From an uncultured delta proteobacterium (GTDB lineage: Bacteria; Desulfobacterota; Binatia; DP-6), in the NCBI GenBank assembly GCA_963851365.1, contig CAWKPA010000006.1, forward strand, positions 49,353 through 113,352: a stretch of 64,000 nucleotides of DNA. Reading direction: 5' to 3'. The notes under the pieces are model-generated. The model saw only the letters and a list, made by a program, of their open reading frames with translations, did no database searches and was not told the DNA's origin. The translations under genes were made by a program, and so were the position numbers. This document shows positions 17,153-52,434 of the stretch, in pieces; position 1 is the stretch's first letter, and the number at the start of each line of letters is the position of its first letter.

Positions 17153-17165
17153 GCCGCGCCCACCG

Positions 17166-17927: not shown

Positions 17928-19363
17928 GGCTCCCGCACCTCGATCGTCACTTCCACGAAGTCCGCCGCCCGGGCATCCCAGCGGAACGCTCGCGTCTCGG
18001 CCGCCTCCCAGGCATCGGAGATGACGACGTAGGTCACGTCGGGATACGCGGGTTCGCCGTCGAAGAGCGCACGGGCGCGGTCCTCGGCCGAGAAATACGC
18101 CCCGCTCTTCGGATGCGAGTGGTAGAGCACCGCGAGGCGTTCGCCCGCGCGCTCGGCTGCATCGAGCAGCTCGTACGCGTCGGCCCGCGGCGTGTACGCG
18201 CTCTCCGCCGTTCGCGTGTAGACCAGGGGCTCCCGGGCATGGAGCTCGTTCTGCACGTTGACGAAACGAATCACCCGCTGGCTCGCCCCGTCCACCACCG
18301 CCCCGCAGCACTCCTCCGCACCCGTCTCGCGCGCATGCGCCACCAGGGCGTCGAGCGTCGGGCGCGCCAGCACGAGTGGCGGCAGCCGGCTGTCGCGCTC
18401 GCGGCGGACGCGCGCCCGGATCACCCGCGCCAGGGTGTCGTTGCGCGGCGTCGGAACACCCCGGCGCGCGCCCTCGCGCACCAGGTGACCGGTGATGGCC
18501 TCGATCTCGGTGGGACGCCCGCGCTCCAGGTCCTGCAGCATCGAGGACCGGTGCCCCGCCGTGGGCGGCAACAGCGTCCCGTAGAAGTGCCGGCGATAGC
18601 TGGCGGCGTCCGGCCACGGCAGGGCGACGCCCGCCGCGCCCGCGACGGCCATCGCCTCGTCGAGCACGCCGTCCATGAGGGCGCGCGTGTCGGGATCCGC
18701 CGCCAGGTGCCCGTACGGCACGCCGAGCAGCGCACCCAGCGGGTTCAGCGCCGCGTTGTAGAGCGCCTTCGCCCACAACTCGGCCGTGATCGCGTCGGTG
18801 GCCCGTGCGGGGATGCCGGCCGCGGCGAGCATCTCCGCCCACCGCGCGGCCGCCGCCACGCGCGCGGCGTCGCGCGAATCGGGGCTTCCGATCAGGACTG
18901 GGGCCGCCTCGACGGTGACACGCACGCGGCCGGGCGCGAGTATCTCCGCGCCGAAGATCACACGCCCGCCGAGCACTCGCGACGCGCCGACGATCGCCGC
19001 GGCGCGCTCCAGATTGCCGAGACCATTCTGCAACGAGAGCAGATGCCCGTCCGTCGCCAGCCGCTTCTCGATCGCGAAGGCCATGGCGGCCGTGTCCCAG
19101 GACTTGACGGTGAGGAAGACGGCCGTAAAGGTGTCGCGCAACGCCAATACGTCGGGCACGCAGTCGAGTCCGCGCACATGGTGGTCGCCGAAGCATCCCT
19201 CGATGCGCAGCCCGTCGCGCCGGATGGCGTCGAGGTGCGCCACCCGACCGACCAGCGTGACCGGCCAGCCGCGCGCCGCGAGCAGCCCGCCGATGACCGA
19301 GCCGACCGCCCCGGCGCCCGCAATCAGGATCGGTCCTGCCGGCATGGTCTGGCGTTCCGTCAT
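17924..19363 (-). CDS. 2-dehydropantoate 2-reductase (PanE/ApbA) fused to a C-terminal JAMM/MPN+ metalloprotease domain
   Basis: N-terminus has the Rossmann motif IAGAGAVGS and KPR-like sequence over about 310 aa. The C-terminal ~150 aa carry EECCG ... YHSHPKSGAYFSAED, which matches the JAMM motif E-x(n)-HxH-x7-S-xxD. Confidence 0.7.
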   Translation of the reverse strand: MTERQTMPAGPILIAGAGAVGSVIGGLLAARGWPVTLVGRVAHLDAIRRDGLRIEGCFGDHHVRGLDCVPDVLALRDTFTAVFLTVKSWDTAAMAFAIEKRLATDGHLLSLQNGLGNLERAAAIVGASRVLGGRVIFGAEILAPGRVRVTVEAAPVLIGSPDSRDAARVAAAARWAEMLAAAGIPARATDAITAELWAKALYNAALNPLGALLGVPYGHLAADPDTRALMDGVLDEAMAVAGAAGVALPWPDAASYRRHFYGTLLPPTAGHRSSMLQDLERGRPTEIEAITGHLVREGARRGVPTPRNDTLARVIRARVRRERDSRLPPLVLARPTLDALVAHARETGAEECCGAVVDGASQRVIRFVNVQNELHAREPLVYTRTAESAYTPRADAYELLDAAERAGERLAVLYHSHPKSGAYFSAEDRARALFDGEPAYPDVTYVVISDAWEAAETRAFRWDARAADFVEVTIEVREP

Positions 19364-19460
19364 CGGCGTCCGACGATAGATGCCGGGTCCCTGCCCTACA
19401 AGCGCATGGCGGCCGGGACCTCGATTGACGGCACGCGGAGCCGCCGTCTATCGTCTCGTC

Positions 19461-20582
19461 GTGATTCGCCCCGATCGGCTGAAACGGTTCTTCCTCGACC
19501 TGGTCGGAATCGACAGCATCTCGCGGTGCGAGGGCCGCCTCGCCGCCCGCCTGGTCGACGAATTGCGCGACCTCGGCGCCACGATCACGTTCGACCGCGC
19601 GCACGAAGCCGTCGGCGGCGAGGTTGGCAACATGGTGGCCCGCATTCCCGGCACCACGGCGGCGCCACCATTTCTGCTCTGCGCGCACATGGACACGGTG
19701 GAGCCGGGCCTCGGCGTTCGAGCGGTCGACGAGGGCGACGTGGTGCGGAGCGACGGCACCACCGTGCTCGGCGGTGACGACAAATCGGGCATCGCCATCG
19801 CCTGCGAAGCGGTCCGCGCGGCTCGCGAACGCGGGGTGCCGCATCCGCCCGTGGATCTGGTGTTCACCATCTGCGAGGAGCTCGGACTGCTCGGGGCGCG
19901 ACACCTCGACATCACGCTCGTCGGCGCCCGCCGCGGGCTGGTCTTCGACAGCGACTCGCCGGGCGTCGTCTTCACCCGCGCCCCGGGCTCGCACGCGCTC
20001 GAGGCCGTGGTACACGGTCGCGCCGCGCATGCCGGGATGGCGCCCGAGCAGGGCGTGAACGCCATCCAGGTGGCGTCGGAGGCGATCGCCGCCATGCGTC
20101 TCGGCCGCATCGACCCCGAGACGACGGCCAACGTCGGTCTGATTCGGGGCGGCCGCGCCATCAACATCGTGCCCGACGAGGTGCGGCTGCGCGGCGAGGC
20201 CCGCAGCCACGACTTGGCACGCCTCGACGCGCAGTGCAGGCACATGCGCGGCTGCCTGGAGGCGGCGGTGGCACGTCACCCCGGCGCGCGGCTCGACCTC
20301 CGGATCGACCCGCTGTACCAGCCGATGGCGATCCCGGACGACGCGCCGGTCCTGCAGGTGCTCCGAGCCGGGGCCGCGGCCGCGGGCCACACCGTCCGCG
20401 CCGCTGCCATGGGCGGGGGGTGCGATGCCAACGTCCTCAACCGTCTCGGCTTCGAGGTGGTGAATCTCGGGACCGGCATGCGCGATATCCACACCACCAG
20501 CGAGTGGGTGCGGGTGAGCGACATGGTGGCCGCCGCCGAGGTCACGCTGGCGACGCTGGAGGTGGCGGCGACGGCGCGCTAG
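19461..20582 (+). CDS. M20-family metallopeptidase (peptidase T/tripeptidase-like)
   Basis: Metal-binding motifs HMDTV and GGDDKSGIA. GTG start at 19461; the gene is divergent from the panE fusion. Confidence 0.8.
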   Translation: MIRPDRLKRFFLDLVGIDSISRCEGRLAARLVDELRDLGATITFDRAHEAVGGEVGNMVARIPGTTAAPPFLLCAHMDTVEPGLGVRAVDEGDVVRSDGTTVLGGDDKSGIAIACEAVRAARERGVPHPPVDLVFTICEELGLLGARHLDITLVGARRGLVFDSDSPGVVFTRAPGSHALEAVVHGRAAHAGMAPEQGVNAIQVASEAIAAMRLGRIDPETTANVGLIRGGRAINIVPDEVRLRGEARSHDLARLDAQCRHMRGCLEAAVARHPGARLDLRIDPLYQPMAIPDDAPVLQVLRAGAAAAGHTVRAAAMGGGCDANVLNRLGFEVVNLGTGMRDIHTTSEWVRVSDMVAAAEVTLATLEVAATAR

Positions 20583-21544
20583 CTCGCTGTCGCCTCCCCG
20601 GCGTCGGCAGCCGGCCCCGCCCGCAGTCGAGGCAGTTCCGCTCCAGACGCCAAGAACACCAGCGCTCCGACCACGCCCCCGAGGGCCGTCAGCAGCCACC
20701 AGAGCAGGCCCATGACGACCGCCACCGACGCATCGACGCCGAGGACGCCGAGAAGCCACAGATAGCCTCCCTCGCGCACGCCGAACCCGCCGATGCTGAT
20801 CGGCAGCGCCATCATCAGGCTCAGGATCGGGTGCATGACCAGGCAATAGGAGAAGGGAATCGCCGCGCCGGCGGCCCGACCCAGCAGATACTGCACGCCC
20901 ACCTGCGAGAGATGGAAGAGGAGCGAGAGCGCCGCCACCCGCAAGAGCATCCCGCGGTCGCGCCAGAACGGCGCAAGGTCCTGTTCCACGTGCCTGCGGA
21001 GACGATTGCCCGGCGGCAGAACGCGGACGAGGCGCGGACACATCCACCAGGCCACGACCAGCGCGAGTCCGCCGGCGATCATCGCCATGCTGAGGAGCCG
21101 CGGCAGCCGATAGCCTGGGAACGCCAATAGCGCCGCCGCACCGAGCGCCATCAAGATCGCGAGTCCGCTGATGCGGTCGAAGACGACCGAGTTGAGCGCC
21201 AGCCCAGGGCGCCGCCCGCCGGCCAGATAGAGCCCGCGGGCGACGTCGCCACCGATGGTACTGAGCCCGAAAACGTTGAGGAACATGCCGATGAAGTAGT
21301 AGCGCGCGTAGGCTCCGAGCGGGCGTGTCAGCCCGACCGACGACCCGAGCAGCCACCACTTGACGCCGCTCAGGACCTGCCCGGCGAGGAACAGCGCGAT
21401 GGGCGGCACCAGCGCGGGCAACCGCACCCCGGCCCCCGCCGCCCAGAGATCGCCCCGATCCACGGCGCCGAGGATCCAGGCCACCACGGCGACGCTGATC
21501 GCGGCCCGCAGCGCCCACTGTGCGATCGCGCGCGGCGGAGGCAT
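20579..21544 (-). CDS. UPF0104/flippase-like membrane protein (second paralog)
   Basis: 321 aa, multi-TM, with the same family pattern as the 12469..13548 protein. The true start is the internal MPPPRAIAQW at 21544. Confidence 0.65.
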   Translation of the reverse strand: MPPPRAIAQWALRAAISVAVVAWILGAVDRGDLWAAGAGVRLPALVPPIALFLAGQVLSGVKWWLLGSSVGLTRPLGAYARYYFIGMFLNVFGLSTIGGDVARGLYLAGGRRPGLALNSVVFDRISGLAILMALGAAALLAFPGYRLPRLLSMAMIAGGLALVVAWWMCPRLVRVLPPGNRLRRHVEQDLAPFWRDRGMLLRVAALSLLFHLSQVGVQYLLGRAAGAAIPFSYCLVMHPILSLMMALPISIGGFGVREGGYLWLLGVLGVDASVAVVMGLLWWLLTALGGVVGALVFLASGAELPRLRAGPAADAGEATAS

Positions 21545-32503: not shown

Positions 32504-34669
32504 TCATTGCAGGTAGCCGAGCGCTTCGAGCGCGCGGCGGCGCTCGGGGTCCACCGGGGCGGCAGGCGGTTCCTTGGTCAGACGGCCGCCGACGACGTCG
32601 CACGAGCGCCGCAGGCCGTCGATGTAGATGGCGCCGAGCTTTGCGAGCGCCGGCTGCTCCGCGGCCAGATCATGCTGCTGGTCCGGATCGGAGTCGACGG
32701 CGTAGACGGCGACCCGGTCTCCCTGCGCGATCCAGGTGTGTCCTCCCATGCGCAGCAGCGTCTCACGGATGTTCAAGAACAGGTTCTCGGCAAACGCCAT
32801 GGGAACACGCGGGGCCGGACGGCCTTCGAGAAGCGGGGCGAAGCTGGCGCCGCGGAAGCTGGCGGGCTGCGGGACGCCGGCCAGCTCGAGGATGGTCGGG
32901 GCCAGGTCGACGAGGGAGACGATGTCGGGAACACGGCGACCGCCGGTGGCCAAGCGCGGGTGCCGCATGACCAGCGGGACATCCACCTGCTCGCGGTAGA
33001 CCGTGTACCCATGGCCGAACTGGCCGTGCTCCCAGAACTCCTCGCCGTGGTCCGACGTGATGACGACCAGGGTGTTCTCGAGGATGCCACGGCGCTCGAG
33101 CGCCCGCAGAAAACCGCCCAGCAGCTCGTCCGTGTAGCGGAGTCCTTCGTCATACGCCGCCGCAAACCAGTCCGCCTGCCCGCCCTCCGGGCCGGGCGCC
33201 CAGCGCCCCGCCACGTGCGGCGGCACCTTGTAGACCGCGTGCGGCTGGTAGGTGTGCAGGAAGAAGAAGAACGGCCGGTTCGCATGCGCGTCGATCCACG
33301 ATCGCGCGTGGGCGATCCCCTCGGGGAAACGGCCGAGCGGCGCGGCCGCGTCGGGCAGGAGTTCGCGATAGCGGTCGAATCCCCGGTCGAAGCCCATGTC
33401 GGGGTCGATCAAGCCGTCCTCGGTTACGGCGCCCGTGGCCCAGCCGGCGGCCGCGAACGCCTCGGCGAGCGTGGTGACCGTGGGCGGCAGACGCATGCCG
33501 GGCCCTAGGACGCGATGCGCGCAGGGATGCAGTGCGGTCAGCATCGACATGTGCGACCCCGCGGTCGACGGGAACGTCGACGTCGCGCGTTCGAAGATCA
33601 CTCCCTGCGCTGCGAAGGCATCCAGCAGCGGCGACGTCTCGCGGTGATACCCGTGGAGACTCAGGTGATCCGCACGCACCGTGTCGAGCGAGATGAGGAG
33701 GACGTTCGGCTGCGGACGATCGTCCCGGTCGGGAGCGATCAGCACGGGCGCGCCCCACACCGGGAAGCCGAGGGGCGCGCCGTCCCCTTCGGTGACCGCG
33801 TCGAGCACGATCGCCGTCTCGCGGCCGGCGAAGCTGCTCAGGTCGACCTCGGCGCCCAGCCACCCCCGGGCGGCGATCCGGCGCACGGGGTCGATCCGTC
33901 GCGACCACACGACGGTGCCGGTCGCACCGGGCGGCCCTGCCCGAACGCGAAACGTCGTCGGAGGGCTGGGCCCACTCCATCCCGGCACCGCAACGCCGAA
34001 GGAGACGACGAGCCCCTCCCCCGCGCGCGGGACGAGCGGCTCGAGTTCGACCACCGCACTCGTTCGCGCGCCCGACCAGGCATGCACGACCGCGAGCGCC
34101 CGGCGGCCACGATCGAGGGGACCCAACCGTACGGGGACGTGCTCCGGAAACGACGACACGTAGACGGCCTCCTGCGGCACCCCGCGAACGGCTGCCGTTC
34201 CATCCGCAGCGCCCAAGACGCGAAAGTCCCGATAGACGCTCGGCTGCGCGTCGCCGACCGGGACACCGCTGGCGGCGAGCGAGGGCAGGTCGGCCAGAAG
34301 CTGCGCGACCCGCCGCGCGCCGGCCGTCGCGACGAGGCGCGCTTCCGCGCTCCCGCTCCGCAGTGTGAGCACTTCGGGCACGAGCAGCGCGGGCCCGTCG
34401 GCGACGGGACCACGGTCGTCGAGCGTGCCGCTCGTGTCGAGCCGCATGCGCACCACCGCGCTCCGCGGCACCGTCACGGTCGACGCCGCAACCAGCCGCC
34501 GCTCGGGACACCCCGACGCCGGGCGCGTCTCGCCACCCGGCTCGAGCGCGCAGTGCGTGAACGACGCCTCGACAGCGGCCGGTCGACGCACGGACAAGCG
34601 CGCGCCGGCGGTGTCGGCGCCGAGGACGCCGAGGGCGAGCATCCCGGCCTGGAAAGAGCGTATCCGCAC
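32504..34669 (-). CDS. sulfatase-like hydrolase/transferase (alkaline-phosphatase superfamily) with N-terminal extra domain
   Basis: The C-terminal ~420 aa carry LLISLDTVRADHL, FPSTAGSHMSMLT and ITSDHGE. The N-terminal ~300 aa form a non-catalytic domain behind a signal peptide. Confidence 0.75.
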   Translation of the reverse strand: MRIRSFQAGMLALGVLGADTAGARLSVRRPAAVEASFTHCALEPGGETRPASGCPERRLVAASTVTVPRSAVVRMRLDTSGTLDDRGPVADGPALLVPEVLTLRSGSAEARLVATAGARRVAQLLADLPSLAASGVPVGDAQPSVYRDFRVLGAADGTAAVRGVPQEAVYVSSFPEHVPVRLGPLDRGRRALAVVHAWSGARTSAVVELEPLVPRAGEGLVVSFGVAVPGWSGPSPPTTFRVRAGPPGATGTVVWSRRIDPVRRIAARGWLGAEVDLSSFAGRETAIVLDAVTEGDGAPLGFPVWGAPVLIAPDRDDRPQPNVLLISLDTVRADHLSLHGYHRETSPLLDAFAAQGVIFERATSTFPSTAGSHMSMLTALHPCAHRVLGPGMRLPPTVTTLAEAFAAAGWATGAVTEDGLIDPDMGFDRGFDRYRELLPDAAAPLGRFPEGIAHARSWIDAHANRPFFFFLHTYQPHAVYKVPPHVAGRWAPGPEGGQADWFAAAYDEGLRYTDELLGGFLRALERRGILENTLVVITSDHGEEFWEHGQFGHGYTVYREQVDVPLVMRHPRLATGGRRVPDIVSLVDLAPTILELAGVPQPASFRGASFAPLLEGRPAPRVPMAFAENLFLNIRETLLRMGGHTWIAQGDRVAVYAVDSDPDQQHDLAAEQPALAKLGAIYIDGLRRSCDVVGGRLTKEPPAAPVDPERRRALEALGYLQ

Positions 34670-34792
34670 GACGTCCGCAGTCCTTCCCGGTCGCCCCGTG
34701 GGCTACGTTCGCGGGGCGAGACCCGTCAAGACGCGGCGTGGCAGCCGGCGCGCCGACGTGGCGGAACCGCCCGGCGGCAGCGTCACGTGCGT

Positions 34793-34915
34793 ACGGCGCC
34801 CCGCAGGGGCGAGCGTCTCGCCGAACTGGGCTGGAGCCCGCAGCCCATCGTGGGCATCGGCATTCGCCGCCTGATCGGGGCACGGCTGCAGGCGGAATCG
34901 GGACGCAGCAGATGA
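34793..34915 (+). pseudogene. 5' fragment of a cyclopropane-fatty-acyl-phospholipid synthase paralog
   Basis: Translation ...TAPRRGERLAELGWSPQPIVGIGIRRLIGARLQAESGRSR* is collinear with the N-terminus of the intact cfa at 44064 (NTAPRAVERFAERGWIPRPLVRLGIRRMIGDRLDAESRRD). Nucleotide identity is about 75% over ~120 bp. Confidence 0.5.
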
Positions 34916-34993
34916 GAATTCGAAAGGGCGATGTGCCGGTCAAGCCCTGGGCGAGAGCAGCACGTGTGACCGCGCCTCGTTCAGCCCGCCTTG

Positions 34994-35600
34994 CTACCTG
35001 CGGCGCCCGCTGGTGGCGATCGCCGCCGCCAGCTCGCGCGCGAACCGCGCCAGCGCCCGGTTGAGCGCCGTCACCGCCGCGTCGCCCCCGGAGCCGGTGC
35101 CTGGCTCCGTGATCACCGACTTGCCCTGCGCGACGACGGCGCCCGATTCCGGCTCCCGAATGCTCCAGTCGGCGGTCAACATGGCGGTGCCGGCCGCGTC
35201 GGTCTCGAACGCCCTGACGTCGACGCGCACGGCGGCATCCAGGGGCTTGCTGACCCGCCAGGGATAGTCGGCCACGATCGCCCCGCCGAGCGCCTGGGAG
35301 AGGTCCTCGTTGAGCGGCGCGGATGAACTGCTTGCGCAGCGGCTCGGCCCACCGCTCGCCCTCGGCATACTCGATGCGCGTGCCGTCGACGCGCGTCACG
35401 AGACCGGGACGGCTCAGATAGCCTGGAATGGTGACCGGTCCGAGGCCGACGCTGAGACCGCCGGCCAACTGCACCGGCGCGTCGGCGACGGCGGCGAGCG
35501 TGTAGTAACGGGTACGGTCGGGACGCGCCCGGAAAAGGCAGCCGGACAGGCTGGTGGCCAGCAGGAGGGCGACCACGGCTGCGCGCTCGTGGTGCCTCAT
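34994..35600 (-). CDS. PqiC/YmbA-like (DUF330) ABC-transport auxiliary lipoprotein, apparent frameshift near 35315
   Basis: The N-terminus (lipobox LSGC, RYYTLAAV ... EYAEGERWAEPLRKQFIRA) runs in one frame. The C-terminus (PLNEDLSQALGGAIVADYPWRVSKPLDAAVRVDVRAFETD...) runs in another. The combined length is about 200 aa, typical for PqiC. Confidence 0.7.
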
Positions 35601-36562
35601 GGTTTCGGCCTCCCGGTCAGGATCGCGTTGGGGTTGCGATCGAGGTAGTCCGCCAGATCGCGGAAGGTGCGCGCGGTCTCGCCCAGCTCGGCGAGGGTGC
35701 TGGTCAGCTCGACCACGAGCGGCGCATCGGGATCGAGGAAGGAGTGGGCGCGCGTCAAGGTCTGATCGAGCTGCGGCTCGAGCCGGCGCAGGACATGCTC
35801 GAGGGTGGCGAGGGAGGCGCGCGCCTGGACCACCGTGGTGTCGAGGCCCTTGAGCGTGTTCCCGAGGTCCGGCTCGAGCGAGTCGGTCGCCTTACGCACC
35901 GAGGCCAGCGTGTCGCGCAGCGCGGCGAGCGTGTCCTCGATCTTGGGCGAGCGGGCGAGCTTGTCCACGCCGTCGAGGGTGCTGCGGGCGGAGGCCATCA
36001 GGCCCTCCAGGTCGAGCGTCTCCACCCGCTTCATCACCGTGTCGAAGGTCTGCATGGCCCGCTCGATGGTGGTGGGCATGGCGGGGACTTCGAGTATGTC
36101 GGGCTGCCCCGCGAGCTCGAACACGAGAGGCGAGTCCGGAAAGAAGTCCAGGCCCACGTAGAGCACGCCGGTGACGAAGCTCTCGGTTTGGAGCTGGGCG
36201 CGGAGCCCGGCGGCGATCAGCTCGTCGAGACGCTGGCGATCGAGGCGCCAGGGCCGCCCCTGGTATCCGGAGACCGTATCGACGTCGATCGTGTACCAGA
36301 CCGGGATGCGAATGTCGGCCAGCGATGCGCCCGGCAGGCCCAGCTTGATGCCTGACACCGACCCGACCGGCACGCCCCGGAACTTGACCGGCGCGCCCAG
36401 CACCAGACCCTTCACCGACCCCGCGAAATACGTGACCAGCTTGATCTCGTGGCGGAAGAAGCTTCCCGAGCCGAACACCAGGAGGGCGGCGACGGCCAGC
36501 GCCGCAGCGCCCAGCACGAAGGCGCCGACCAGCAGCGGATTGCCTCGGCGGCCGCGGCTCAC
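35597..36562 (-). CDS. MCE-family (MlaD/PqiB-like) periplasmic substrate-binding protein
   Basis: N-terminal TM helix followed by an MCE domain (VKGLVLGAPVKFRGVPVGSVSGIKL). The GTG start overlaps the mlaF stop. Confidence 0.85.
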   Translation of the reverse strand: MSRGRRGNPLLVGAFVLGAAALAVAALLVFGSGSFFRHEIKLVTYFAGSVKGLVLGAPVKFRGVPVGSVSGIKLGLPGASLADIRIPVWYTIDVDTVSGYQGRPWRLDRQRLDELIAAGLRAQLQTESFVTGVLYVGLDFFPDSPLVFELAGQPDILEVPAMPTTIERAMQTFDTVMKRVETLDLEGLMASARSTLDGVDKLARSPKIEDTLAALRDTLASVRKATDSLEPDLGNTLKGLDTTVVQARASLATLEHVLRRLEPQLDQTLTRAHSFLDPDAPLVVELTSTLAELGETARTFRDLADYLDRNPNAILTGRPKP

Positions 36563-37341
36563 GGCTGCGCTCCCGGCCGCGCTTCCTCCCCACCGCGGGT
36601 GAGGAACTGGTGGACGCGCTCGTTCGGGGGATGGTCGCGCAGCGCGCGGGGATTACCGTGCGCGGTCATGGTGCGAACCTCCGTGTCGAGAAAGATACAG
36701 TCGTCCCCGATCGAGAAGATGCTGGGCAACTCGTGCGACACCATCACCACCGTGGCGCCCAGGCTGTCACGCAGCGACAAGATCAGGTCGTCGAGCAGCC
36801 GCGAGCTGATTGGGTCGAGCCCGGCCGACGGCTCGTCGAAGAAGAGCACCTCGGGATCGAGCGCGATGGCGCGTGCGAGAGCGGCGCGCTTCTGCATGCC
36901 GCCGCTGATCTCGGACGGGTAGTGGTCCTCGAAGCCGCGCAACCCGACCAGCGCCAGCTTGACCTGGGCGACCTGCCGGATCTCCGCCGGGGAGAGATCG
37001 GTGAACTGCCCGAGGGGCAGACCGACGTTCTCCGCCAGGGTCATCGCGCTCCACAGGGCGCTGCCCTGGAAGGTGATGCCGAACCGGCTGCGCAGCTCGT
37101 CCCGTTTCTCCTCCGGGGCGGCGGTGAAGTCGACGTCGCCGTACCATACCGACCCCTTCGCCGGCTCGTTGAGGCCGATCAGGTGGCGGAACAGCGTGCT
37201 CTTCCCGCACCCGCTGCCCCCCATGATGAAGAAGATGTCGCCGCGCTGCACGGTGAAGGCGAGGTCGCGCATGACGACGAAGTCACCGAACGCCATGGTG
37301 AGGTCCTTGACGCCGATGTGCATGTCTTTGGCCTCGGCCAC
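36559..37341 (-). CDS. ABC transporter ATP-binding protein (MlaF-like)
   Basis: Walker A GGSGCGKST, signature SGGMQKR and Walker B LFFDEP. Confidence 0.85.
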   Translation of the reverse strand: MAEAKDMHIGVKDLTMAFGDFVVMRDLAFTVQRGDIFFIMGGSGCGKSTLFRHLIGLNEPAKGSVWYGDVDFTAAPEEKRDELRSRFGITFQGSALWSAMTLAENVGLPLGQFTDLSPAEIRQVAQVKLALVGLRGFEDHYPSEISGGMQKRAALARAIALDPEVLFFDEPSAGLDPISSRLLDDLILSLRDSLGATVVMVSHELPSIFSIGDDCIFLDTEVRTMTAHGNPRALRDHPPNERVHQFLTRGGEEARPGAQP

Positions 37342-37342
37342 G

Positions 37343-38494
37343 TCAGATTCCGAGCACGTTCGTGACGACGGCCAGGATGCCGTCGAGGGCAATGATCCAG
37401 ACGATGCCGAGCACCACGGCCGAGGTCGCCGCCAGCCCGACCGCCGCCGCGTCGCGGCCACAGGTCACGCCGCGCATGCATCCCGCGATCGCCACCAGGA
37501 CGCCGAAGAGCAGGCTCTTGCCGACGCCGATGCCGATGTCCGTCAGGCCGATCGCTCCCCTGGTCTCCTGCCAGTACAGCATGGGCCCCTGGCCCAGCAT
37601 GCCGATCCCGACCGCCGCGCCGCCCAGCATGCCGATCACGTCGGCGTAGCAGCAGAGGAGCGGCATCATGAGGGAGAGGGCCAGCATGCGCGGCAGAACC
37701 AGGAAGTCCATGGGCGGCACCGCCATGGTGGAGAGTGCCTCGATCTCCTGGTTCACCTGCATGGTGCCGAGCTCCGCGGCGAAGCCGGAGCCGGTGCGTC
37801 CCGCCATGATGATCCCCGTCATGATGGGCGCCAGCTCGCGCACGGTGGCGATGGCGACCAGATCGGCCACGTAGATGCTGGCGCCGAAGCGTTCGAGCTG
37901 CACGGCGCCGACGAAGGCGATGATGAGGCCGACCAGGAAGTTGATCAGCGTGACGATGCCCAGCGCGTTGGGCCCGCTCTCCTGCAGCACGATCATGACG
38001 TCGCGCCACTGGAAGACCGCCGCGCCGCGGAGAAAGCGCCCGAACGACAGCGTGGCCTCGCCCAGGAACCGGGTCGCCGCCTTCGTCCCCTCCCATGCGC
38101 CTTGCGCCGCGGTGCCGACACGCGCCAGCCACGGCGGTGGCGGCGCCGCACGGGCATCGGTCTTCTCGGGCACCGCGGTGGCCAGCGCCAGGAGGCGTTG
38201 CAGTCCTGCGGGCAGGCCGTCGGGTCGGATCGCGATCGTGCGCTGTGTGCACAGCGTGGCGATCCGGTCCAGCACGGCGAGGCCCGAGCTGTCCCACGCG
38301 GTGAGCCCGGTGGTGTCGAAGCTGACTGTGCGGGGCGACGGCGGGGCGGCAAGCGCCTGCTCGACCGGCGCCGTCGAGGGCAAACCGTCGCGCAGGCGCC
38401 ACTTGCCGGCGAGTCGCACCACCAGGGTGTCGCCGTCGCGGCGTGTGTCGAGCGTCGCCGTCGCTGGCACTGCGCTGGCTGCGGATGCCCTCAT
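37343..38494 (-). CDS. MlaE-family ABC permease with N-terminal STAS domain
   Basis: N-terminal ~110 aa look STAS/anti-sigma-antagonist-like (TLVVRLAGKWRL ... FDTTGLTAWDSSGLAVL). The C-terminal MlaE permease has about 5 TM helices. A GGGGAGA Shine-Dalgarno precedes the start. Confidence 0.8.
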   Translation of the reverse strand: MRASAASAVPATATLDTRRDGDTLVVRLAGKWRLRDGLPSTAPVEQALAAPPSPRTVSFDTTGLTAWDSSGLAVLDRIATLCTQRTIAIRPDGLPAGLQRLLALATAVPEKTDARAAPPPPWLARVGTAAQGAWEGTKAATRFLGEATLSFGRFLRGAAVFQWRDVMIVLQESGPNALGIVTLINFLVGLIIAFVGAVQLERFGASIYVADLVAIATVRELAPIMTGIIMAGRTGSGFAAELGTMQVNQEIEALSTMAVPPMDFLVLPRMLALSLMMPLLCCYADVIGMLGGAAVGIGMLGQGPMLYWQETRGAIGLTDIGIGVGKSLLFGVLVAIAGCMRGVTCGRDAAAVGLAATSAVVLGIVWIIALDGILAVVTNVLGI

Positions 38495-39063
38495 ATGGTC
38501 TCCCCAGCAGACCGGACTTCGCGTTTCTCGCCGCCGATCGGAAGCGCCGCTGGGTGTCGTGCACGCGCTTGCCGTCCCGCGGCCCTGTCGGTTGGCCGGT
38601 GAACAAGGCGCCGAGTCCGACGACGACACGCTGGCGCGCCTTCTCGCCGCCAAGCGAGGTACGCTGTGCGAGCGCGTGCGTCAAGTGTTCGCCACAACCG
38701 ACGAAGTCCGCCCGGTCGCATTCGCGTCCTACCGCTTCGGCAGCGCCTTCCTGCATGCCGGTTTCGCTGCCTGAGGTTCGTGGACGATGGCGCCACCGGC
38801 AGGCGGGGACGAACCGTCCACGCGCATGCGGTCGCGACATCGGCTCGTCCCTTCGGGGCCATGTCGCTGGGCAGCCCGTGCCTGCCGCCCGCTGCAGGCG
38901 CAGACTCGTCCGGCGGCGCTAGCGGGGGTGACGACGCGGCCGTCAGCCCGGCGGCACGAGGTCAGCGATTGACGGAGCCCCCGTCTGGTCGCTAGCCTCG
39001 GCAACTGCCTTGCTGCGGAATGCCCGGGGGTGCCATCCGGGCTGAAGCAGAGCCGATGCTTTC

Positions 39064-41361
39064 ATGATGCAGGCAATCCCCCGTCGCATCGAAGGACAAC
39101 GGGGCCACCGGCTCACCGAGCGTTCCGCGAGCAGACGGTCGCATGCGTTGGTACGGGTCGCCTTGGTGCTCTGCGTGCTACTCGTCCTCTGGTCGGCGGC
39201 TCTGGCCGCCTCGCCCGCTGCCGAATCCAACGCGGAGGACCTCCATCCGCTCCGGCCCGCCGACACGACGAGCCCCCAGGCGACGCTGCAGGGCTTCCAG
39301 GAGCACATGCGGGAAGTGGTGCGGGGGTGGCACGCCCGTCTGCCGCCCGCCGACCTCGATCGTGTGATCTCCAAGGCGTTGGACGCTCTCGACTTGAGCG
39401 GACTTCCGCCATCCGAGCGCGTGGACCAGGGTGCGGAGCGGGCCATCATTCTGCTGGACATTCTCGGCCGCATCGAGCTGCCGCCGCTCGCTGAGATTCC
39501 CGACGCTGCGGCCGTCGAGGCCAGCGCCCTGCACCGATGGACCATCCCGGACACCGAGATCACCATCGCCCGCACCGAAGAGGGCCCGGAGGCCGGCCGT
39601 TTCCAGTTCACCTGGCCCACCGTGCAGCAGCTCCCGGCATTCTACGAGCTCGCCAATCGCCTCCCGCCCAAGCGGGACTCCCTGGCCGGGTTCTACGAGG
39701 AATGGTCTTATGCGCCCGGCCCCTGGGTCCCCTCGGGCTGGACGACGAACCTGCCCGAGTTCGCCTACGTCGTCGTCTGGCATCAGCGGCTCTGGCAGTG
39801 GTTGGCGGCGTTTGCTGCGCTGGCGCTCACGGCAGCCGTGATCGTGCTGGCGTACCGCGTCGCTCGAAAGATCGATCGGGCTCGCGGCGACGGCGGGCGG
39901 ACAGGTCATTTCGCGCGGCTGGTCGCCACGGTCTTCACGATCGCGCTTCTCCAGCTCGCCACCCGCCTCCTCGACGACGCCGTCAACTTGACCGGGCAGC
40001 GCCTGTTCGTGGTGAACGGCGCCCTACGTGTCGTGCTCTACGTCGCCGTCGGTTGGCTGATCCTGTTCGGCCTGGACGCCCTCGGCGCCGCCGTCATCCG
40101 CCTGCGGGATTCTCGTCCAAGCAGCATCGATGCGCATCTGGTGCGGGTCGTCGGGCGCCTGCTCGCCATCGTCACCGTCGTCTGCCTGATCGTGTGGGTG
40201 GCCGAGTCGTTCGGCATCCCGGCGACGCCGCTGATCGCCAGCCTCGGCGTCGGCGGCCTCGCCATCGCGCTGGCCGTGCGGCCCACGCTCGAGAACGTCA
40301 TTGGCGGCTTGATCCTCTTCGCCGACAAACCGGTCCGCGTCGGCGACTTCTGCCAGTACGGCGACGCCGTCGGCACGGTCGAGGAGATCGGCCTGCGGTC
40401 GACGCGGATCCGCTCCCTGGAGCGGAGCACCGTCACCATTCCCAACGCCGAGTTCTCCCATATGCAGCTGGACAACTTCTCGAAGCGGGACCTGCGGCTG
40501 CTGAACATCGTGCTCCAGCTTCGGTACGAGACGACGGCCGAGCAGATGCGCTGGATCCTCGCCACACTGCGCGAGCTCCTGCTCGGCCATCCAATGGTCA
40601 TCCCGGAGCCGGCACGGGTCCGCCTGGTCGACTTCGGCGCCTACTCGAAGAACGTCGAGATGTTCGCCTACCTCCGCTGCCAGGATCAGGACGCCTTCCT
40701 CGCCATCAAGGAGGACCTCCTGCTGCGGATCGAGGACGTCATCGAACAGGGGGGCAGCGGCTTCGCCTTCCCCTCGCAGACGGCCTACTTCGCCCGGGAC
40801 GGGGGCCTGGACGCAGAGCGCCGGGACGCTGCCCAGGCCCAGGTCGGCCAGTGGCGCGCGCGCGGCCGCCTCCCGTTCCCGGACTTCGAGGCGAACGAGC
40901 GCGACCGGCTGAAGGACGTGCTCGACTACCCGCCGAGGGGCTCGCCGCACTACGAGCCGCCCCGGCCCGCCGTCGAGCGGGAGGTCGCGAGGGTGTCGTC
41001 AACCTTCGCGGTGGAGGATCTGGCAGATCTTCCCGCACTGGTCGCGAAGCTGCGGGGCGGAAATGCGCTTGCTCAGCACCTCTCGATCCAGCTCTCGGCC
41101 GAGACGCAAGAGCTGCTGTCGCGCTACGAAGGGGGCGCGGACGCAGCTCTGAAGAAGGCGCTCGTCCGGGAGCTGAACGCCGTGATCCGTGGCCCGTCCC
41201 TCTACGACGAGGATCGCTTCGACAAGGTCGATCTCGCCCCGGAGACCGAGGCGCTGCTCGGGCGGGCGCCGGAGGGCGAGGATCTGCGGCGCCTCAACCT
41301 GCTGCTGCTGCAGGACGCCTACCCGGCGGAGCTGTCGCGCCGGAAGGTCGTGGCGAGGTGA
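39064..41361 (+). CDS. mechanosensitive ion channel (MscS family, large form)
   Basis: 765 aa. N-terminal signal and periplasmic region, then a TM region with the MscS core LGVGGLAIALAVRPTLENVIGGLILFADKPVRVGDF ... TIPNAEF. Confidence 0.85.
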   Translation: MMQAIPRRIEGQRGHRLTERSASRRSHALVRVALVLCVLLVLWSAALAASPAAESNAEDLHPLRPADTTSPQATLQGFQEHMREVVRGWHARLPPADLDRVISKALDALDLSGLPPSERVDQGAERAIILLDILGRIELPPLAEIPDAAAVEASALHRWTIPDTEITIARTEEGPEAGRFQFTWPTVQQLPAFYELANRLPPKRDSLAGFYEEWSYAPGPWVPSGWTTNLPEFAYVVVWHQRLWQWLAAFAALALTAAVIVLAYRVARKIDRARGDGGRTGHFARLVATVFTIALLQLATRLLDDAVNLTGQRLFVVNGALRVVLYVAVGWLILFGLDALGAAVIRLRDSRPSSIDAHLVRVVGRLLAIVTVVCLIVWVAESFGIPATPLIASLGVGGLAIALAVRPTLENVIGGLILFADKPVRVGDFCQYGDAVGTVEEIGLRSTRIRSLERSTVTIPNAEFSHMQLDNFSKRDLRLLNIVLQLRYETTAEQMRWILATLRELLLGHPMVIPEPARVRLVDFGAYSKNVEMFAYLRCQDQDAFLAIKEDLLLRIEDVIEQGGSGFAFPSQTAYFARDGGLDAERRDAAQAQVGQWRARGRLPFPDFEANERDRLKDVLDYPPRGSPHYEPPRPAVEREVARVSSTFAVEDLADLPALVAKLRGGNALAQHLSIQLSAETQELLSRYEGGADAALKKALVRELNAVIRGPSLYDEDRFDKVDLAPETEALLGRAPEGEDLRRLNLLLLQDAYPAELSRRKVVAR
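41308..41358. repeat. direct repeat copy 1 (3' end of mscS)
   Basis: CTGCAGGACGCCTACCCGGCGGAGCTGTCGCGCCGGAAGGTCGTGGCGAGG; about 88% identical to copy 2 at 42505-42555. Confidence 0.6.
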
Positions 41362-41534
41362 GGCGCAGGTGCGCGCAGCCGCGACAACGGTTCAGGCACC
41401 GCGGCTCGCCGCACAGCGCGAGCCGCTCATCCGCGATGGAGCAGCCGACATCGCCAACGCCGCCCCGCACGAATTCGGTGATCCGCACCGGTCTCCGGGG
41501 CCGTGGTTCTCCGCTGCCCGTGCCTGAGCGGTAG

Positions 41535-42416
41535 GTGGTACAGATGGATTACCGTCGGAAGTTCGTCATCGAGCCCGGGCAGAAGGTGCGGCTGCGCAGG
41601 ATCGATCCTGCCTACACCGGGAAGCACGAGTCGCGCGAGGCGGCGCTGCCGAGAATCCAGGAGCACCTCGCGCGGCTCACCGCGCTCCAGTACCTGCTCT
41701 ATGCGGACGGCAACCAATCGCTCCTGGTCGTCCTGCAGGCGCTCGACGCGGGCGGCAAGGACGGCGTGGTGCGCCACGTGTTCAACGCCATGAACCCGCA
41801 GGGCACGTCGGTGTTCGGTTTCAAGCAGCCGAGCAAGGTGGAGGCGGCGCACGACTTCCTCTGGCGGGCGCACCAGCGCACGCCCGGGAGGGGGGAGGTC
41901 GTCATCTTCAACCGCTCGCACTACGAGGACGTGCTCGTGGTGCGGGTCCACAAGCTGCTGCCGAAGTCGGTCTGGTCGAAGCGCTACGAGCTCATCAACG
42001 ACTTCGAGAAGATGCTCCACGAGAACGGGACACGCATCGTGAAGCTCTATCTCCACATCAGCCCGGAAGAGCAGCTCGCCCGCTTCCACGAGCGGCTCGA
42101 GGATCCCGCGCGCCAGTGGAAGATCAGCGAGTCCGACTACTCGGAGCGCGAGCTGTGGCCCGCCTACGTCGAGGCGTTCGAGGAGGCCATGGAACGGACG
42201 AGCACGCGGCACGCGCCGTGGTACGTCATCCCCGCCAACCACAAGTGGTTCCGCGACCTCGCGATCTCGGCGATCATCGCCGACACGATGGATGAGATGG
42301 GGCTCCGGCTGCCGCCGACGCGGGTGGACGTCGCGGAGATGCGGCGCAAGTATCACGCCGCCGCGCTGGAGCAGGCGCGCCGGGACGGGCGGCGGGCGGG
42401 ACGCAAGAGGAACTAA
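41535..42416 (+). CDS. ppk2: polyphosphate kinase 2 (PPK2)
   Basis: 293 aa with PPK2 Walker-like motif LQALDAGGKDG and lid motifs. Confidence 0.9.
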   Translation: MVQMDYRRKFVIEPGQKVRLRRIDPAYTGKHESREAALPRIQEHLARLTALQYLLYADGNQSLLVVLQALDAGGKDGVVRHVFNAMNPQGTSVFGFKQPSKVEAAHDFLWRAHQRTPGRGEVVIFNRSHYEDVLVVRVHKLLPKSVWSKRYELINDFEKMLHENGTRIVKLYLHISPEEQLARFHERLEDPARQWKISESDYSERELWPAYVEAFEEAMERTSTRHAPWYVIPANHKWFRDLAISAIIADTMDEMGLRLPPTRVDVAEMRRKYHAAALEQARRDGRRAGRKRN

Positions 42417-42504
42417 GGCCACATCCCCCTGATCACGCGCGGGCCGCACTCCTGGCGGAGGGGCCGGAGGACGCCGGCTCCCGGCTTGGCGAGGGGACGG
42501 TACC

Positions 42505-42555
42505 CTGCAGGACGCCTCCTCGGCGGAGCTGTCCCACAGGAAGGTCGTGGCGAGG
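42505..42555. repeat. direct repeat copy 2 (degenerate copy of mscS 3' end)
   Basis: CTGCAGGACGCCTCCTCGGCGGAGCTGTCCCACAGGAAGGTCGTGGCGAGG, 90 bp downstream of the ppk2 stop. Confidence 0.6.
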
Positions 42556-42612
42556 CGACGACCACGCGGTCCGCCGTGTCGAGGAACGGCCGGCAGCGTT
42601 CGCCACGCGCGG

Positions 42613-43791
42613 CTACTTCGCGATGGTGATGGGGATACTCGCATCCTGGACCGCCTGGACGGTCGTCTGGAAGAGGACGTTGAGGATGGCGAACGACTGT
42701 CGGTCCCAGCGGGTGTCGTTCACGCTGTAGTGCTTGCTCCGATACTCGATCGACGGGACGTTGCCGCTGGGGCCCGAGCCGGTGACGTTGATCTTGAGCG
42801 TGAACGGGGGGCTCGGTGCGGTCTCCTGGAGCCAAGGGTTCGGGGGGACCTCGTAGCCCTCGTCGAGATCGATGCCCAGTGCGAGGAAGCCGAGAATCTG
42901 CATCAGGCTCCGCAGCTTGATCGCCCCCTCGAGCGCCACGCCGCTCGCTGGGTGGAGGGAGAGGTGAACGAAGCCGGCAGGATTCCTCTTGATCCGCTCG
43001 TTCAGCTGGAAGCGCTCCAGGTCGGTGAGCGACATCGGGTCGACGTTGGTCACGATGACGCGACCCGCCTCGAGCCGCGTCAGTTCGAAGCCGCCATCGG
43101 CCTTCTGGCGCCACCGCAGGCCCTTGTCGAAACCGTTGTTGATGTCCTCGGCGCGCGGGATGGCCCTCAAGTCGGCAACGAGAATGTCTTCGAAGACGAG
43201 GGCGCGAACGAACAGCTGCCGGGATTCGTTGAGCGCCTGGAGAATCGAGGCGATCCGGCGGAACTCCTCGTACTCCTGCGGGCGCCGGGGGTCGTTCTCG
43301 ATGAAACGTACGAAGCGGCCGTCCTCGGCCTGGACCTCGATGCCGGCCGCCATGATTCGCATGGCCTGGTCGATGCGGGTGCCCTGGAACACGACGAACT
43401 CGAACGTGCTGTCCGGGAACGGTGTTGCGATGCGCTTGGTGAACTCTTCGCCTGTGATGGGCAGGATGCTGAAGGTAGGATTCTCCGAGGAGCTGGCGCC
43501 GATGTTGATATCGAGGAAGTTGGACTTGGCCGCCTGGGTGAGCTGGCCACCGGCCCCGGCCGTCGTCGTCCAGTCGAAAGTCGCGGCGATGCTGGAGGTG
43601 GTGGTGAAGTGCACCGATTCGCCGTGGTGCAGGCGGGCGATGTTGAGGAGGAGCAGCTTCTCGTCGAGGGACTTGGCGACCTCGTCGTAGCTCAGCACCT
43701 GCCGCTCCAGCACCGGTGGCCCGAGACAGCCGGCCAGAAGCAAGGCGAGCGAGACGAGGCCCAACGGGAGCGCCATGCATCGATCATGCAT
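42613..43791 (-). CDS. lipoprotein of unknown function
   Basis: About 392 aa with signal peptide and lipobox LLLAGC. Confidence 0.6.
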   Translation of the reverse strand: MHDRCMALPLGLVSLALLLAGCLGPPVLERQVLSYDEVAKSLDEKLLLLNIARLHHGESVHFTTTSSIAATFDWTTTAGAGGQLTQAAKSNFLDINIGASSSENPTFSILPITGEEFTKRIATPFPDSTFEFVVFQGTRIDQAMRIMAAGIEVQAEDGRFVRFIENDPRRPQEYEEFRRIASILQALNESRQLFVRALVFEDILVADLRAIPRAEDINNGFDKGLRWRQKADGGFELTRLEAGRVIVTNVDPMSLTDLERFQLNERIKRNPAGFVHLSLHPASGVALEGAIKLRSLMQILGFLALGIDLDEGYEVPPNPWLQETAPSPPFTLKINVTGSGPSGNVPSIEYRSKHYSVNDTRWDRQSFAILNVLFQTTVQAVQDASIPITIAK

Positions 43792-43874
43792 CGTTCCCAC
43801 GATCCCCGACCGTCCCGCGCGTCGGCGATCGCATCCACTCCCCTCCGAGCAACCCTCCAGCATGGCCTGGAGCG

Positions 43875-43891
43875 GTGTGCCTGGTGCACAC
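43875..43891. promoter_or_regulatory. palindromic putative operator in divergent lipoprotein/cfa intergenic region
   Basis: GTGTGC-ctggt-GCACAC: 6-bp perfect inverted arms with a 5-bp spacer. Confidence 0.2.
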
Positions 43892-44063
43892 ACCGCTTCG
43901 TTACTCTCTTACTGCAACGCGGATGGGAGGTAAAAGACCGGATCGCGGCTCCGCCCGTTGTGGCGATGCCACATGGCCCACACCGGCCCGCGCCGGCAGA
44001 GGAGGGCGCGCGCAGTCCGCAACGGACTTGAACGAGGCGCAGCCGCCTGCGAAACATCGGGAC

Positions 44064-51543: not shown

Positions 51544-52434
51544 ATGATGGTCTACCCAGACCGGATGGCAGGACGACTGGAGCATCGGGTGGCCGTCGTG
51601 ACGGGCGGCGGGAACGGCATCGGGCGCGCGACCGTGCTGCGCTTCGTCGCCGAGGGGGCCCGCGTGCTGGTCGCGGATCTCAACGTCGAGACGGGCGAAG
51701 AGACGATCGCCCTGGTGGAGCGGGCGGGGCACGGCGGGCAGGCCCGCTTCCTCCGCACCGACGTCGCCGACGAGGCGCAGGTGCGAGCAGCCATCGAAGG
51801 CGCGCACCACGCCTGGGGCCGCCTCGACTGCGTGTTCAACAACGCCGGCGTCGGCGGCGCCGTGGGGCCGATCACGCACCTCCGGGTGGAGGACTGGGAC
51901 TTCACCATGGCCGTGCTGCTCCGCAGCGTCTTCCTCGGCATGAAGCACGGCGCGCGGATCATGAAAGCGCAGGGCCGCGGCGGCGTCATCCTGAGCACGG
52001 CGTCGGTGGCGGGGCTGTCCGGCGGCGACGGCCCGCAGGCGTACTCGGCCGCCAAAGCGGCCGTCATCAACCTGACACGCGCCGTGGCGCTGGAACTGGC
52101 GGCGGACTGCATCCGGGTGAACTGCATCTGTCCCGGGGGCATCAACACGCCGCTGCTGCACCGCGGCAGCCCCGACGCGATCGCACAAATGCTGGACCGT
52201 GCGCAGCCGTGGCCGGAGCACGGACGGGCGGAGGACATTGCCGCCGCCGCGCTGTATCTGGCCAGCGACGACGCCCGCTTCGTCACCGGCGAAGCGCTGG
52301 TGGTGGACGGTGGTCTCACCTGCGGGGGAGGCAACAGCCTACGCCGGCAACCCGGCGCCGACGGGCCGATGCAGATGGTGGGCGTCGACCGCGGCTCGAC
52401 GGGCGAGCCCAGCACGCTCGGCCCGATCGAGTAG
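51544..52434 (+). CDS. SDR-family short-chain dehydrogenase/reductase
   Basis: Cofactor motif TGGGNGIG, NNAG, and catalytic YSAAK. Confidence 0.85.
   Translation: MMVYPDRMAGRLEHRVAVVTGGGNGIGRATVLRFVAEGARVLVADLNVETGEETIALVERAGHGGQARFLRTDVADEAQVRAAIEGAHHAWGRLDCVFNNAGVGGAVGPITHLRVEDWDFTMAVLLRSVFLGMKHGARIMKAQGRGGVILSTASVAGLSGGDGPQAYSAAKAAVINLTRAVALELAADCIRVNCICPGGINTPLLHRGSPDAIAQMLDRAQPWPEHGRAEDIAAAALYLASDDARFVTGEALVVDGGLTCGGGNSLRRQPGADGPMQMVGVDRGSTGEPSTLGPIE

Follow-up and report, generated by a model that had tools for sequence, protein, structure and literature searches.

How did the closing codons of a mechanosensitive channel gene come to stand a second time, in the same orientation, on the far side of the polyphosphate kinase gene that follows it? 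The question is raised by one locus in the window, the 64-kb stretch of DNA analyzed here, and the features concerned are collected in Table 1. An initial annotation had read the repeat as the footprint of an insertion that duplicated the 3' end of mscS, and it was right in that the repeat is the scar of the rearrangement that put ppk2 behind mscS. We tentatively favor an origin in which a segment was duplicated and the redundant copy was later deleted. A decayed duplication had been only the fallback of the initial annotation; here it ranks first among the readings considered. The duplication and the deletions themselves are what we infer to be most likely from the features described below.

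Table 1. Features of the mscS-ppk2 locus (positions in the window)
Feature	Positions	Strand	Remarks
mscS	39064-41361	+	MscS-family mechanosensitive channel gene, 765 aa; PF00924, PF21088, PF21082
Repeat copy 1 (t1)	41308-41361	+	Last 17 codons and TGA stop of mscS
Spacer x1	41362-41460	.	Joined to copy 1 directly after the mscS stop codon
P-type ATPase relic	41461-41527	+	Eroded 3' end, reads ...HEFGDPHRSPGPWFSAARA*
ppk2	41535-42416	+	PPK2-family polyphosphate kinase; first start GTG 41535, database version ATG 41544
Spacer y'	42417-42504	.	ppk2 to copy 2
Repeat copy 2 (t2)	42505-42558	+	Non-coding relic of the mscS 3' end
Spacer	42559-42612	.	54 nt, from copy 2 to the stop codon of the lipoprotein-like gene, which converges
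Lipoprotein-like gene	42613-43893	-	No Pfam family; database version 392 aa from 43791

A repeat search showed that the two copies, 54 nt each and 1197 nt apart from start to start, align without gaps and are identical at 48 of 54 positions (89%). The initial annotation had reported a 51-nt version at about 88% identity, for which the count is 46/51 (90%). It had also placed both copies in one reading frame, which proved correct (the translations are LQDAYPAELSRRKVVAR* and LQDASSAELSHRKVVARR), and had put the second about 90 bp past ppk2, where the measured distance is 88 nt after the stop codon. It had allowed that the similarity might fade on realignment, but this did not happen. When the repeat was compared with the 64-kb window by blastn, the E value was 2.7e-15. 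A 51-nt degenerate pattern that accommodates both copies, searched with at most 3 mismatches, matched two sites, both of them the repeat copies, and had 0 matches in 100 dinucleotide-preserving shuffles. Among the other direct repeats in the 64 kb that are 30 nt or longer, none exceeds 78% identity. The repeat is genuine.

Identity between the copies ends sharply at 41307/42504 and at 41362/42559, and beyond these points it is at background, gapped or ungapped. The left flanks gave an alignment score of 15, which was reached by 28 of 200 shuffles, and they do not extend the repeat. The right flanks scored 17, a borderline value that 3 of 200 shuffles also reached; it depends on an alignment with many gaps, at an identity of about 55%. 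Two further matches were set aside: a 21-nt match between 41360-41380 and 51772-51792 lies inside an SDR gene, does not extend and was judged to be chance, and a match by eye of 42483-42497 to the end of the tail (12/15) is insignificant once the searched offsets are allowed for. A dispersed repeat family of the REP or MITE type was also rejected, there being two copies only in 64 kb.

The channel protein is extended by about 190 aa at its C-terminal side and is identical to database protein P0001; its C-terminus, ...LLQDAYPSELSRRK, is conserved among homologues. At five of the six sites that differ between the copies, copy 1 is the same as all 13 relatives, while at the sixth the relatives are split. 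To judge from this conservation, copy 1 is the working C-terminal end of the channel gene. Because 13/13 relatives side with copy 1 at these five differences, copy 2 is the derived copy. The changes in copy 2 are Y>S, P>S, R>H, the stop codon TGA>CGA and two that are synonymous; thus four of the six alter an amino acid or abolish the stop, and the three replacements fall at conserved residues. Its reading frame has a TGA upstream at 42430 and no start codon before a GTG at 42547. Copy 2 is a fragment on the same strand as the intact mscS, which lies 1.2 kb upstream, and it is evolving without constraint. Replacements together with stop loss are the pattern expected of unselected decay and argue for duplication followed by loss. 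Copy 2 is most likely a functionless, neutrally decaying remnant of the 3' end of a second mscS copy.

The divergence of copy 2 is about 0.11 substitutions per site, compared with a dS of 0.3-0.6 to the nearest relatives. Both copies share the ending VVAR (GTCGTGGCGAGG), which is absent from all sampled relatives, and therefore the duplication postdates the split from all of them. Copy 2 had no match among 96 fetched loci.

The possibility was considered that copy 2 has a function, for example in forming an RNA element, acting as a terminator or encoding a small peptide, or that the repeat is an artefact of assembly. Two points count for these readings: copy 2 is free of indels despite 11% substitutions, and the source is a metagenome-assembled contig of 437 kb (NCBI, ENA). 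However, copy 2 has no Rfam family match and no promoter-like or terminator-like site, it is not covered by any ORF with an upstream start, and its substitutions at conserved residues and in the stop codon are those of neutral decay. Such changes would not be expected in a strain variant of a working gene either. Moreover, the longest run of identity between the copies is 17 nt, and an identical run of this length is too short for a k-mer mis-join in assembly. Both function and artefact are very unlikely.

Between the copies lie 1143 bp (41362-42504), which contain ppk2 and a degraded piece of a P-type ATPase gene, its 3' end. The initial annotation had seen only ppk2 and its upstream region there. 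The assignment of ppk2 is upheld by its profile matches (PF03976, E 1e-72; TIGR03709, E 1e-111), whereas the upstream region itself proved to be the P-type ATPase relic, which had been missed. The kinase has homologues at 84-91% identity, a GC3 of 0.94 and a host-like composition. The relic ends 7 nt ahead of the first possible ppk2 start (GTG 41535) and may carry ppk2 expression signals. The nucleotide similarity of the sequence upstream of ppk2 to loci L085 and L100 was above that of all 200 shuffles. Spacer x1 has no significant similarity to the window, to the upstream regions of L084, L085 and L100 or to any fetched locus, and spacer y' has none to the regions downstream of ppk2 in the same three loci or to the remaining window. 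Searches of both spacers against all fetched loci by tblastx and blastn gave low-complexity noise only.

Relatives carry a P-type ATPase gene, whole or truncated, immediately ahead of ppk2, and ppk2 is in most cases followed by SulP. In L099 the ATPase gene is intact and ends 17 nt ahead of ppk2. A truncated tail is found beside ppk2 in the window, L084, L085 and L100/L101, with about 57 aa kept in L085 and L100 (tblastn E 3e-21 for L085). The tail in several genomes indicates that gene-end scars do form and persist around ppk2. The context of ppk2 differs in every relative examined. In L085, L100/L101 and the P0133 contig it adjoins SulP and not Mla, whereas in L084, which carries the closest ppk2 relative (91% aa identity) on a single short contig of 4.8 kb that is itself rearranged, ppk2 converges on ABC_trans_aux and MlaD, with about 80% nucleotide identity to the Mla operon of the window. 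The latter operon lies immediately left of mscS. The arrangement in L084 thus places ppk2, in a relative, across Mla-mscS with its orientation to the Mla genes unchanged. The dS of ppk2 to L084 is 0.31, as against 0.45-0.83 for neighboring genes, a contrast that is not decisive given the extreme GC3 of ppk2, and recent horizontal transfer was not accepted on this ground. A sulfatase present in the window, L097 and L099 was tried as a synteny anchor and rejected, the sulfatases being without detectable mutual similarity.

Out of 5.8 billion proteins, the MscS homologue closest in sequence is 74% identical. The closest relative in the genome collection is at 52% identity, and a metagenome scan gave 10 loci, whose identity is 58-70% when only the C-terminal query is compared and does not exceed 76% across the whole MscS. 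None of the 13 mscS loci of relatives, in all of which MscS is at most 75-76% identical, has ppk2 downstream or a second copy of the tail. The ppk2 module was therefore probably placed behind mscS in this lineage only. The initial annotation had suggested a search of related genomes for an empty site, and all 13 loci have a single tail. Homologues of the lipoprotein-like gene stand in tandem after MscS genes in other genomes, while here the gene is inverted. Scenarios based on inversion, which this orientation suggested, were rejected because they cannot yield a direct repeat in this position.

The leading proposal of the initial annotation was integration of the attL/attR type or gain of a cassette. 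This was not upheld: there is no recombinase, the composition is host-like, and ppk2 occurs elsewhere without flanking repeats. Remnants of recombinases, which it had suggested might lie between the copies, were sought with Pfam, and no integrase, transposase or other recombinase was found in 41362-42504 or in the scanned ORFs at about 30-53 kb. The ends of the segment are absent from the 25 longest inverted-repeat pairs at 39-45 kb, and the composition of the segment shows no foreign signal. A transposon or insertion sequence was rejected because the scanned ORFs include no transposase, the ends of the segment do not appear among those inverted-repeat pairs, and 54 bp were duplicated compared with the usual 2-14 bp. 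An integron cassette with attC sites was rejected because the repeat is conserved mscS coding sequence, no tyrosine recombinase is nearby and there is one unit; attC-like palindromy of the repeat was judged by eye only.

An att element is expected to leave a repeat that ends at the 3' end of its target gene, and the 54-nt repeat does stop at the mscS stop codon; a recombinase is expected inside, and the content is ppk2 and the ATPase-tail relic. In a degraded element of the e14/icd type, the element would have brought its own last 54 bp of mscS, the original end would have become copy 2, and the integrase and most of the element would have been deleted afterwards, leaving ppk2. No other model predicts that the repeat should end precisely at the stop codon, and the anatomy resembles that of icd, e14 and icdC in E. 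coli K-12 (PMC13626634). Nevertheless it is unlikely. Besides the lack of a recombinase in the 1143-bp segment and the scanned ORFs, the sole cargo would be a housekeeping-type gene with host-like GC3. In relatives ppk2 sits in chromosomal contexts and is never flanked by repeats in the four examined for this (L084, L085, L086 and L099), and the ATPase tail of L099 has no duplicate downstream of ppk2. Retention of both att sites with deletion of all but one gene is also unparsimonious. Copy 2 is very probably the dead relic of a rearrangement that was independent of any recombinase.

The absence of recombinase and transposase genes, terminal inverted repeats and composition anomaly also speaks for duplication followed by loss, and the arbitrary length of the relic, 54 nt, fits a deletion end-point, unlike the target duplications made by transposases or end joining. 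In the ancestor, the ppk2 module, consisting of ppk2 and the truncated tail of the preceding P-type ATPase gene, would have adjoined the Mla operon, as in L084, at a distance of a few kb to the left of mscS. A segmental tandem duplication would then have run from about 170 nt upstream of ppk2 through the mscS stop codon. Illegitimate deletions would have removed the redundancy, the left ppk2 copy being lost, and the right unit losing the stretch from 88 nt past ppk2 to 54 nt short of the mscS stop. The net result would be a ppk2 apparently moved behind mscS with its orientation kept, and after it the surviving piece of the lost mscS copy, its last 54 nt.

Several points weigh against this duplication and loss. 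Three events are required, and the ancestral order ppk2-Mla-mscS is taken from the L084 contig alone, while L085, L100/L101 and the P0133 contig have ppk2 by SulP. No second relic was found: x1 and y' contain no detectable remnants of other mscS or Mla fragments, and left of the Mla operon (33000-35100) there is no detectable homologue of the ppk2 flanks and no trace of the first ppk2 copy. The model also demands, as a coincidence, that the duplication end no more than about 2 nt from the mscS stop codon.

A close rival, which we regard as possible, is a one-step insertion that needed no recombinase. A linear or circular fragment with the ppk2 module, originating at another site of the genome or in a relative, would have been joined to the 3' end of mscS, and 54 bp of the target would have been duplicated in the process. 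The original ppk2, if in the same genome, would have been lost afterwards. Long staggered-break fill-in, replication template switching, and homology-facilitated or double illegitimate recombination are conceivable routes. No other reading requires so few events. The ppk2 module clearly derives from another ancestral context, ATPase-ppk2-SulP, and the variable setting of ppk2 among relatives, never behind mscS, is in keeping with insertion. End joining may exist in the group, since a LigD primase-polymerase is encoded near the locus of a relative. However, a target duplication of 54 bp is far longer than those that end joining and transposition usually produce. Neither junction shows visible microhomology, composition and dS carry no foreign signal, and a break at the stop codon would be a coincidence here too. 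Homology-facilitated illegitimate recombination is itself an established route for the integration of small linear DNA in bacteria (PMC3240628).

A bolder idea is that the ppk2 module is a small cassette, mobilized in trans, that lands repeatedly at the 3' ends of membrane-transport genes, which we think highly improbable. It is just as doubtful that a P-type ATPase gene (L099), an MFS gene (P0133 contig) and the MscS gene of the window were its targets, and hardly to be credited that the target tail was duplicated or carried off each time, so that the ATPase and mscS relics would be successive att-like scars. If true, it would represent a new kind of gene shuttle without an integrase.

The value of the locus is mainly for the annotation and history of this genome; what it displays is ordinary genome wear and raises no new question. 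For annotation, the 54-nt copy 2 is neither a gene nor an att site, and ppk2 behind mscS is to be treated as a relocated resident gene and not as an island. The locus is also a small, clean example of same-strand relocation of a bacterial gene that leaves datable pseudo-ends.

A parallel exists at ppk2 itself. Like copy 2, the ATPase-tail relic in the window, L085, L100 and L084 consists of the last tens of codons left attached after a gene was deleted, but it lies upstream of ppk2, is common to several lineages, may have been kept for the ppk2 expression signals in it and has no intact counterpart in the window. Homology-facilitated or double illegitimate recombination does not usually leave a duplication of 54 bp, and at mscS-ppk2 no anchor, donor or junction microhomology was found. 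What these processes share with the locus, as seen in DNA uptake, is a gene-sized insertion beside a chromosomal gene that is independent of a recombinase (PMC3240628). At icd in E. coli K-12 there is likewise an intact gene on one side and a C-terminal pseudogene fragment, icdC, in direct orientation on the other (PMC13626634). However, the prophage e14 measures 15 kb, has a site-specific recombination system of its own and is excised on SOS induction, whereas the DNA bounded by mscS ends is 1.1 kb, lacks a recombinase and holds a resident gene of the housekeeping type. Tandem duplication-random loss in animal mitochondria differs in that the present case concerns a bacterial chromosome, with one relic only, an order deduced from one contig and no intermediate. 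In both, a gene moves without change of strand and a decaying fragment stays in the spacer, and persistent non-coding remnants of this kind are the classical evidence for the duplication-random loss model (PMC5745709).

A repeat search of 39-45 kb and of the whole window (G+C 70.7%) identified a single outstanding direct repeat, at 41308-41361 and 42505-42558. The copies are 54 nt long, ungapped and 48/54 identical, with a start-to-start distance of 1197 nt (blastn E-value 2.7e-15), and all other direct repeats of at least 30 nt in the 64-kb window are at most 78% identical. When a degenerate 51-nt pattern that spans the differences between the copies was searched at a tolerance of 3 mismatches, these two sites were its only matches, and 100 shuffles gave none. 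In-register and gapped comparisons showed that identity falls to background at 41307/42504 and 41362/42559. The longest run identical between the copies is 17 nt, which rules out a k-mer mis-assembly. The initial annotation had described ppk2 as bracketed by copies of the mscS 3' end, and its repeat coordinates, identity and translations all proved correct.

Features of the locus and of related loci
Feature	Position	Strand	Remarks
MscS-family channel, 765 aa	39064-41361	+	PF00924, PF21088, PF21082
ppk2	41535-42416	+	PF03976 (E 1e-72); TIGR03709 (E 1e-111)
Lipoprotein-like gene	42613-43893	-	without Pfam family
CFA-synthase-like gene			beyond lipoprotein-like gene
Mla operon (MlaE-STAS, MlaF, MlaD, ABC_trans_aux)	34994-38653		left of mscS, divergently transcribed
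Sulfatase gene			left of mscS, with Mla operon
Lipoprotein-like homologue, L003	4298-5536		behind MscS gene
Lipoprotein-like homologue, L097	5631-6833		behind MscS gene
Lipoprotein-like homologue, L098	3077-4279		behind MscS gene

An alignment of 14 homologues showed that proteins of this MscS clade genuinely end in the conserved sequence ...LLQDAYPSELSRRK and a small number of variable residues. This motif closes a ~190-aa C-terminal extension without a Pfam domain (residues ~580-765; window ~40800-41361). The tail DNA was compared with the mscS loci of 13 relatives. At five of the six sites that differ between the copies, the relatives uniformly match copy 1, the 3' end of mscS itself; the sixth site is a synonymous Arg codon at which the relatives split. 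Copy 2 carries three replacements (Tyr>Ser, Pro>Ser and Arg>His), a lost stop codon (TGA>CGA) and two synonymous differences, and has thus gathered ~0.11 substitutions per site. The reading frame of copy 2 has a TGA at 42430, its first start codon after that is a GTG at 42547, and it differs from the ppk2 frame. Copy 2 is therefore a non-coding relic; a function of copy 2 or an artefact, taken together, are very improbable. The lineage-specific ending VVAR (GTCGTGGCGAGG) is common to both copies and absent from every relative, so the duplication must postdate the divergence from every relative sampled. For comparison, dS to the nearest relatives was 0.54-0.59 for mscS, 0.45 for the MlaD fragment and, with L084 as the relative, 0.31 for ppk2.

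A search of 5.8 billion proteins gave no MscS homologue closer than 74% identity, so there is no true sister genome to compare; the genome collection has no MscS homologue above 52%. mscS has a single tail in 13/13 loci from several lineages (L001-L003, L087-L096), and ppk2 lies behind it in none of them. In L003 (46% identity) and L097/L098 (66%), a homologue of the lipoprotein-like gene lies in tandem behind an MscS gene, which suggests that the two are a conserved partner pair. In the window, the lipoprotein-like gene is inverted and parted from mscS by ppk2.

PPK2 homologues with 83-91% identity sit in differing contexts. In the related locus L099, an intact P-type ATPase gene (7390-9984) ends 17 nt before ppk2. 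The 'ORFs' of 82 and 52 aa that precede ppk2 in L100/L101 and L085 are the last ~57 residues of that ATPase (L100 5614-5862; L085 2597-2767, tblastn E 3e-21), and the tail reads ...YNLAWMVVEDVAKLGLY...GLHRPAGPRS... to the stop. SulP-STAS lies downstream of ppk2 in L100/L101 and L085, and the gene order on the P0133 contig, from another relative, is MFS-ppk2-SulP. The ancestral module appears to be ATPase-ppk2-SulP/STAS. Window ~41461-41527 reads ...HEFGDPHRSPGPWFSAARA and a stop, and at the nucleotide level it is more similar to L085 and L100 than any of 200 shuffles. The 'upstream region' of ppk2 is therefore itself the eroded, decayed 3' gene-end relic of a P-type ATPase, and an ATPase-ppk2-SulP context is where ppk2 was cut out from. 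The decay series runs from the intact gene of L099, through ~57 codons in L085 and L100/L101, to further erosion in the window and L084. The relic may persist by carrying ppk2 expression signals. Neither an ATPase nor a SulP gene was found in the 64-kb window, and the spacers 41362-41460 and 42417-42504 have no match to the window or the loci compared.

The closest ppk2 relative is L084 (91% aa and 90.7% nt identity), with a shorter ATPase relic (about 190-250). Its ppk2 faces, in convergent orientation, ABC_trans_aux and MlaD sequences with ~80% nucleotide identity to the window's Mla operon, and behind these lies an inverted SulP. The window ABC_trans_aux ORF (33150-35600, minus strand) has no stop where the L084 homologue (1494-2617) ends and continues 816 codons, into the sulfatase gene region; in L084, only fragments of MlaD homology are present, directly next to SulP. 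Rearrangement or frame errors seem to have affected the Mla clusters of both. The ppk2 homologue of L086 has an internal duplication (1218-1338/1533-1653, 121 nt, 83% identical, 315 nt apart) and a product of 405 aa.

Two other similarities were noted near copy 1. An 18-nt inverted repeat, 16/18 complementary, joins 41236-41253 in the mscS 3' region to 41484-41501 in the ATPase relic, with copy 1 and the junction between its arms; pairing of the arms in a read-through transcript is one possibility, chance another. A 21-nt match with one mismatch, between 41360-41380 at the junction after the mscS stop and 51772-51792 in a short-chain dehydrogenase coding sequence, does not extend and was judged to be chance.

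No evidence of a mobile-element origin was found. Integrase, transposase and other recombinase genes were absent from the segment between the copies and from the ORFs scanned at ~30-53 kb, which are ordinary metabolic and transport genes. The segment ends are absent among the inverted repeats listed for 39-45 kb, G+C is even across the region, and the GC3 of ppk2 is host-like (0.94; other ORFs 0.83-0.92). Direct repeats flank ppk2 in none of L084, L085, L086 and L099. Searches for RNA families and for promoter-like and terminator-like sites were likewise negative. The initial reading of a rearrangement scar with a duplicated mscS end holds, but its attL/attR component is unsupported, given the lack of a recombinase and a ppk2 that is host-like and not repeat-flanked elsewhere. 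An att origin of the e14/icd type (PMC13626634) is the sole model that predicts a repeat edge at the stop codon; however, the tests of recombinase, cargo and recurrence all went against it, and it is improbable. The ATPase-ppk2 neighbourhood of L099 contains two DDE transposase genes and a LigD primase-polymerase gene (14524-17362, 19277-20623), so that relatives have transposable elements and are probably capable of end joining.

What must be explained is a same-strand 54-nt mscS fragment that starts 88 nt beyond ppk2 and has the stop codon as its right edge, with ppk2 unchanged in orientation, the neighbours of ppk2 new and no recombinase present. Duplication followed by loss was ranked first, although at slightly less than even probability. 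If ppk2 originally sat to the left of the Mla operon, the arrangement seen in L084, a tandem duplication would have copied [ppk2 module-Mla-mscS]; the left ppk2 copy would then have been deleted, as would the right Mla-mscS copy except for its last 54 nt. These steps would reproduce the present gene order exactly and account for a relic of arbitrary length, and the ATPase relic shows that truncating deletions leave such scars at ppk2. However, three events are required, the scheme rests on one rearranged contig (L084), a search for further relics of the lost copies found none, and the breakpoint would fall at the stop codon by chance. A close rival, possible but doubtful, is a one-step illegitimate insertion in which 54 bp of the target were duplicated. 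It needs fewer events than duplication and loss, but 54 bp is an unusual length for such a duplication, on the long side, and neither junction shows microhomology.

The finding is useful for annotation and for dating a local gene relocation, and the locus adds another example to a type of feature already known. The one-step insertion was compared with the illegitimate recombination route of PMC3240628. For duplication followed by loss, the counterpart is the duplication-random-loss model, which usually draws its evidence from non-coding remnants that persist (PMC5745709), and copy 2 resembles these lasting remnants.
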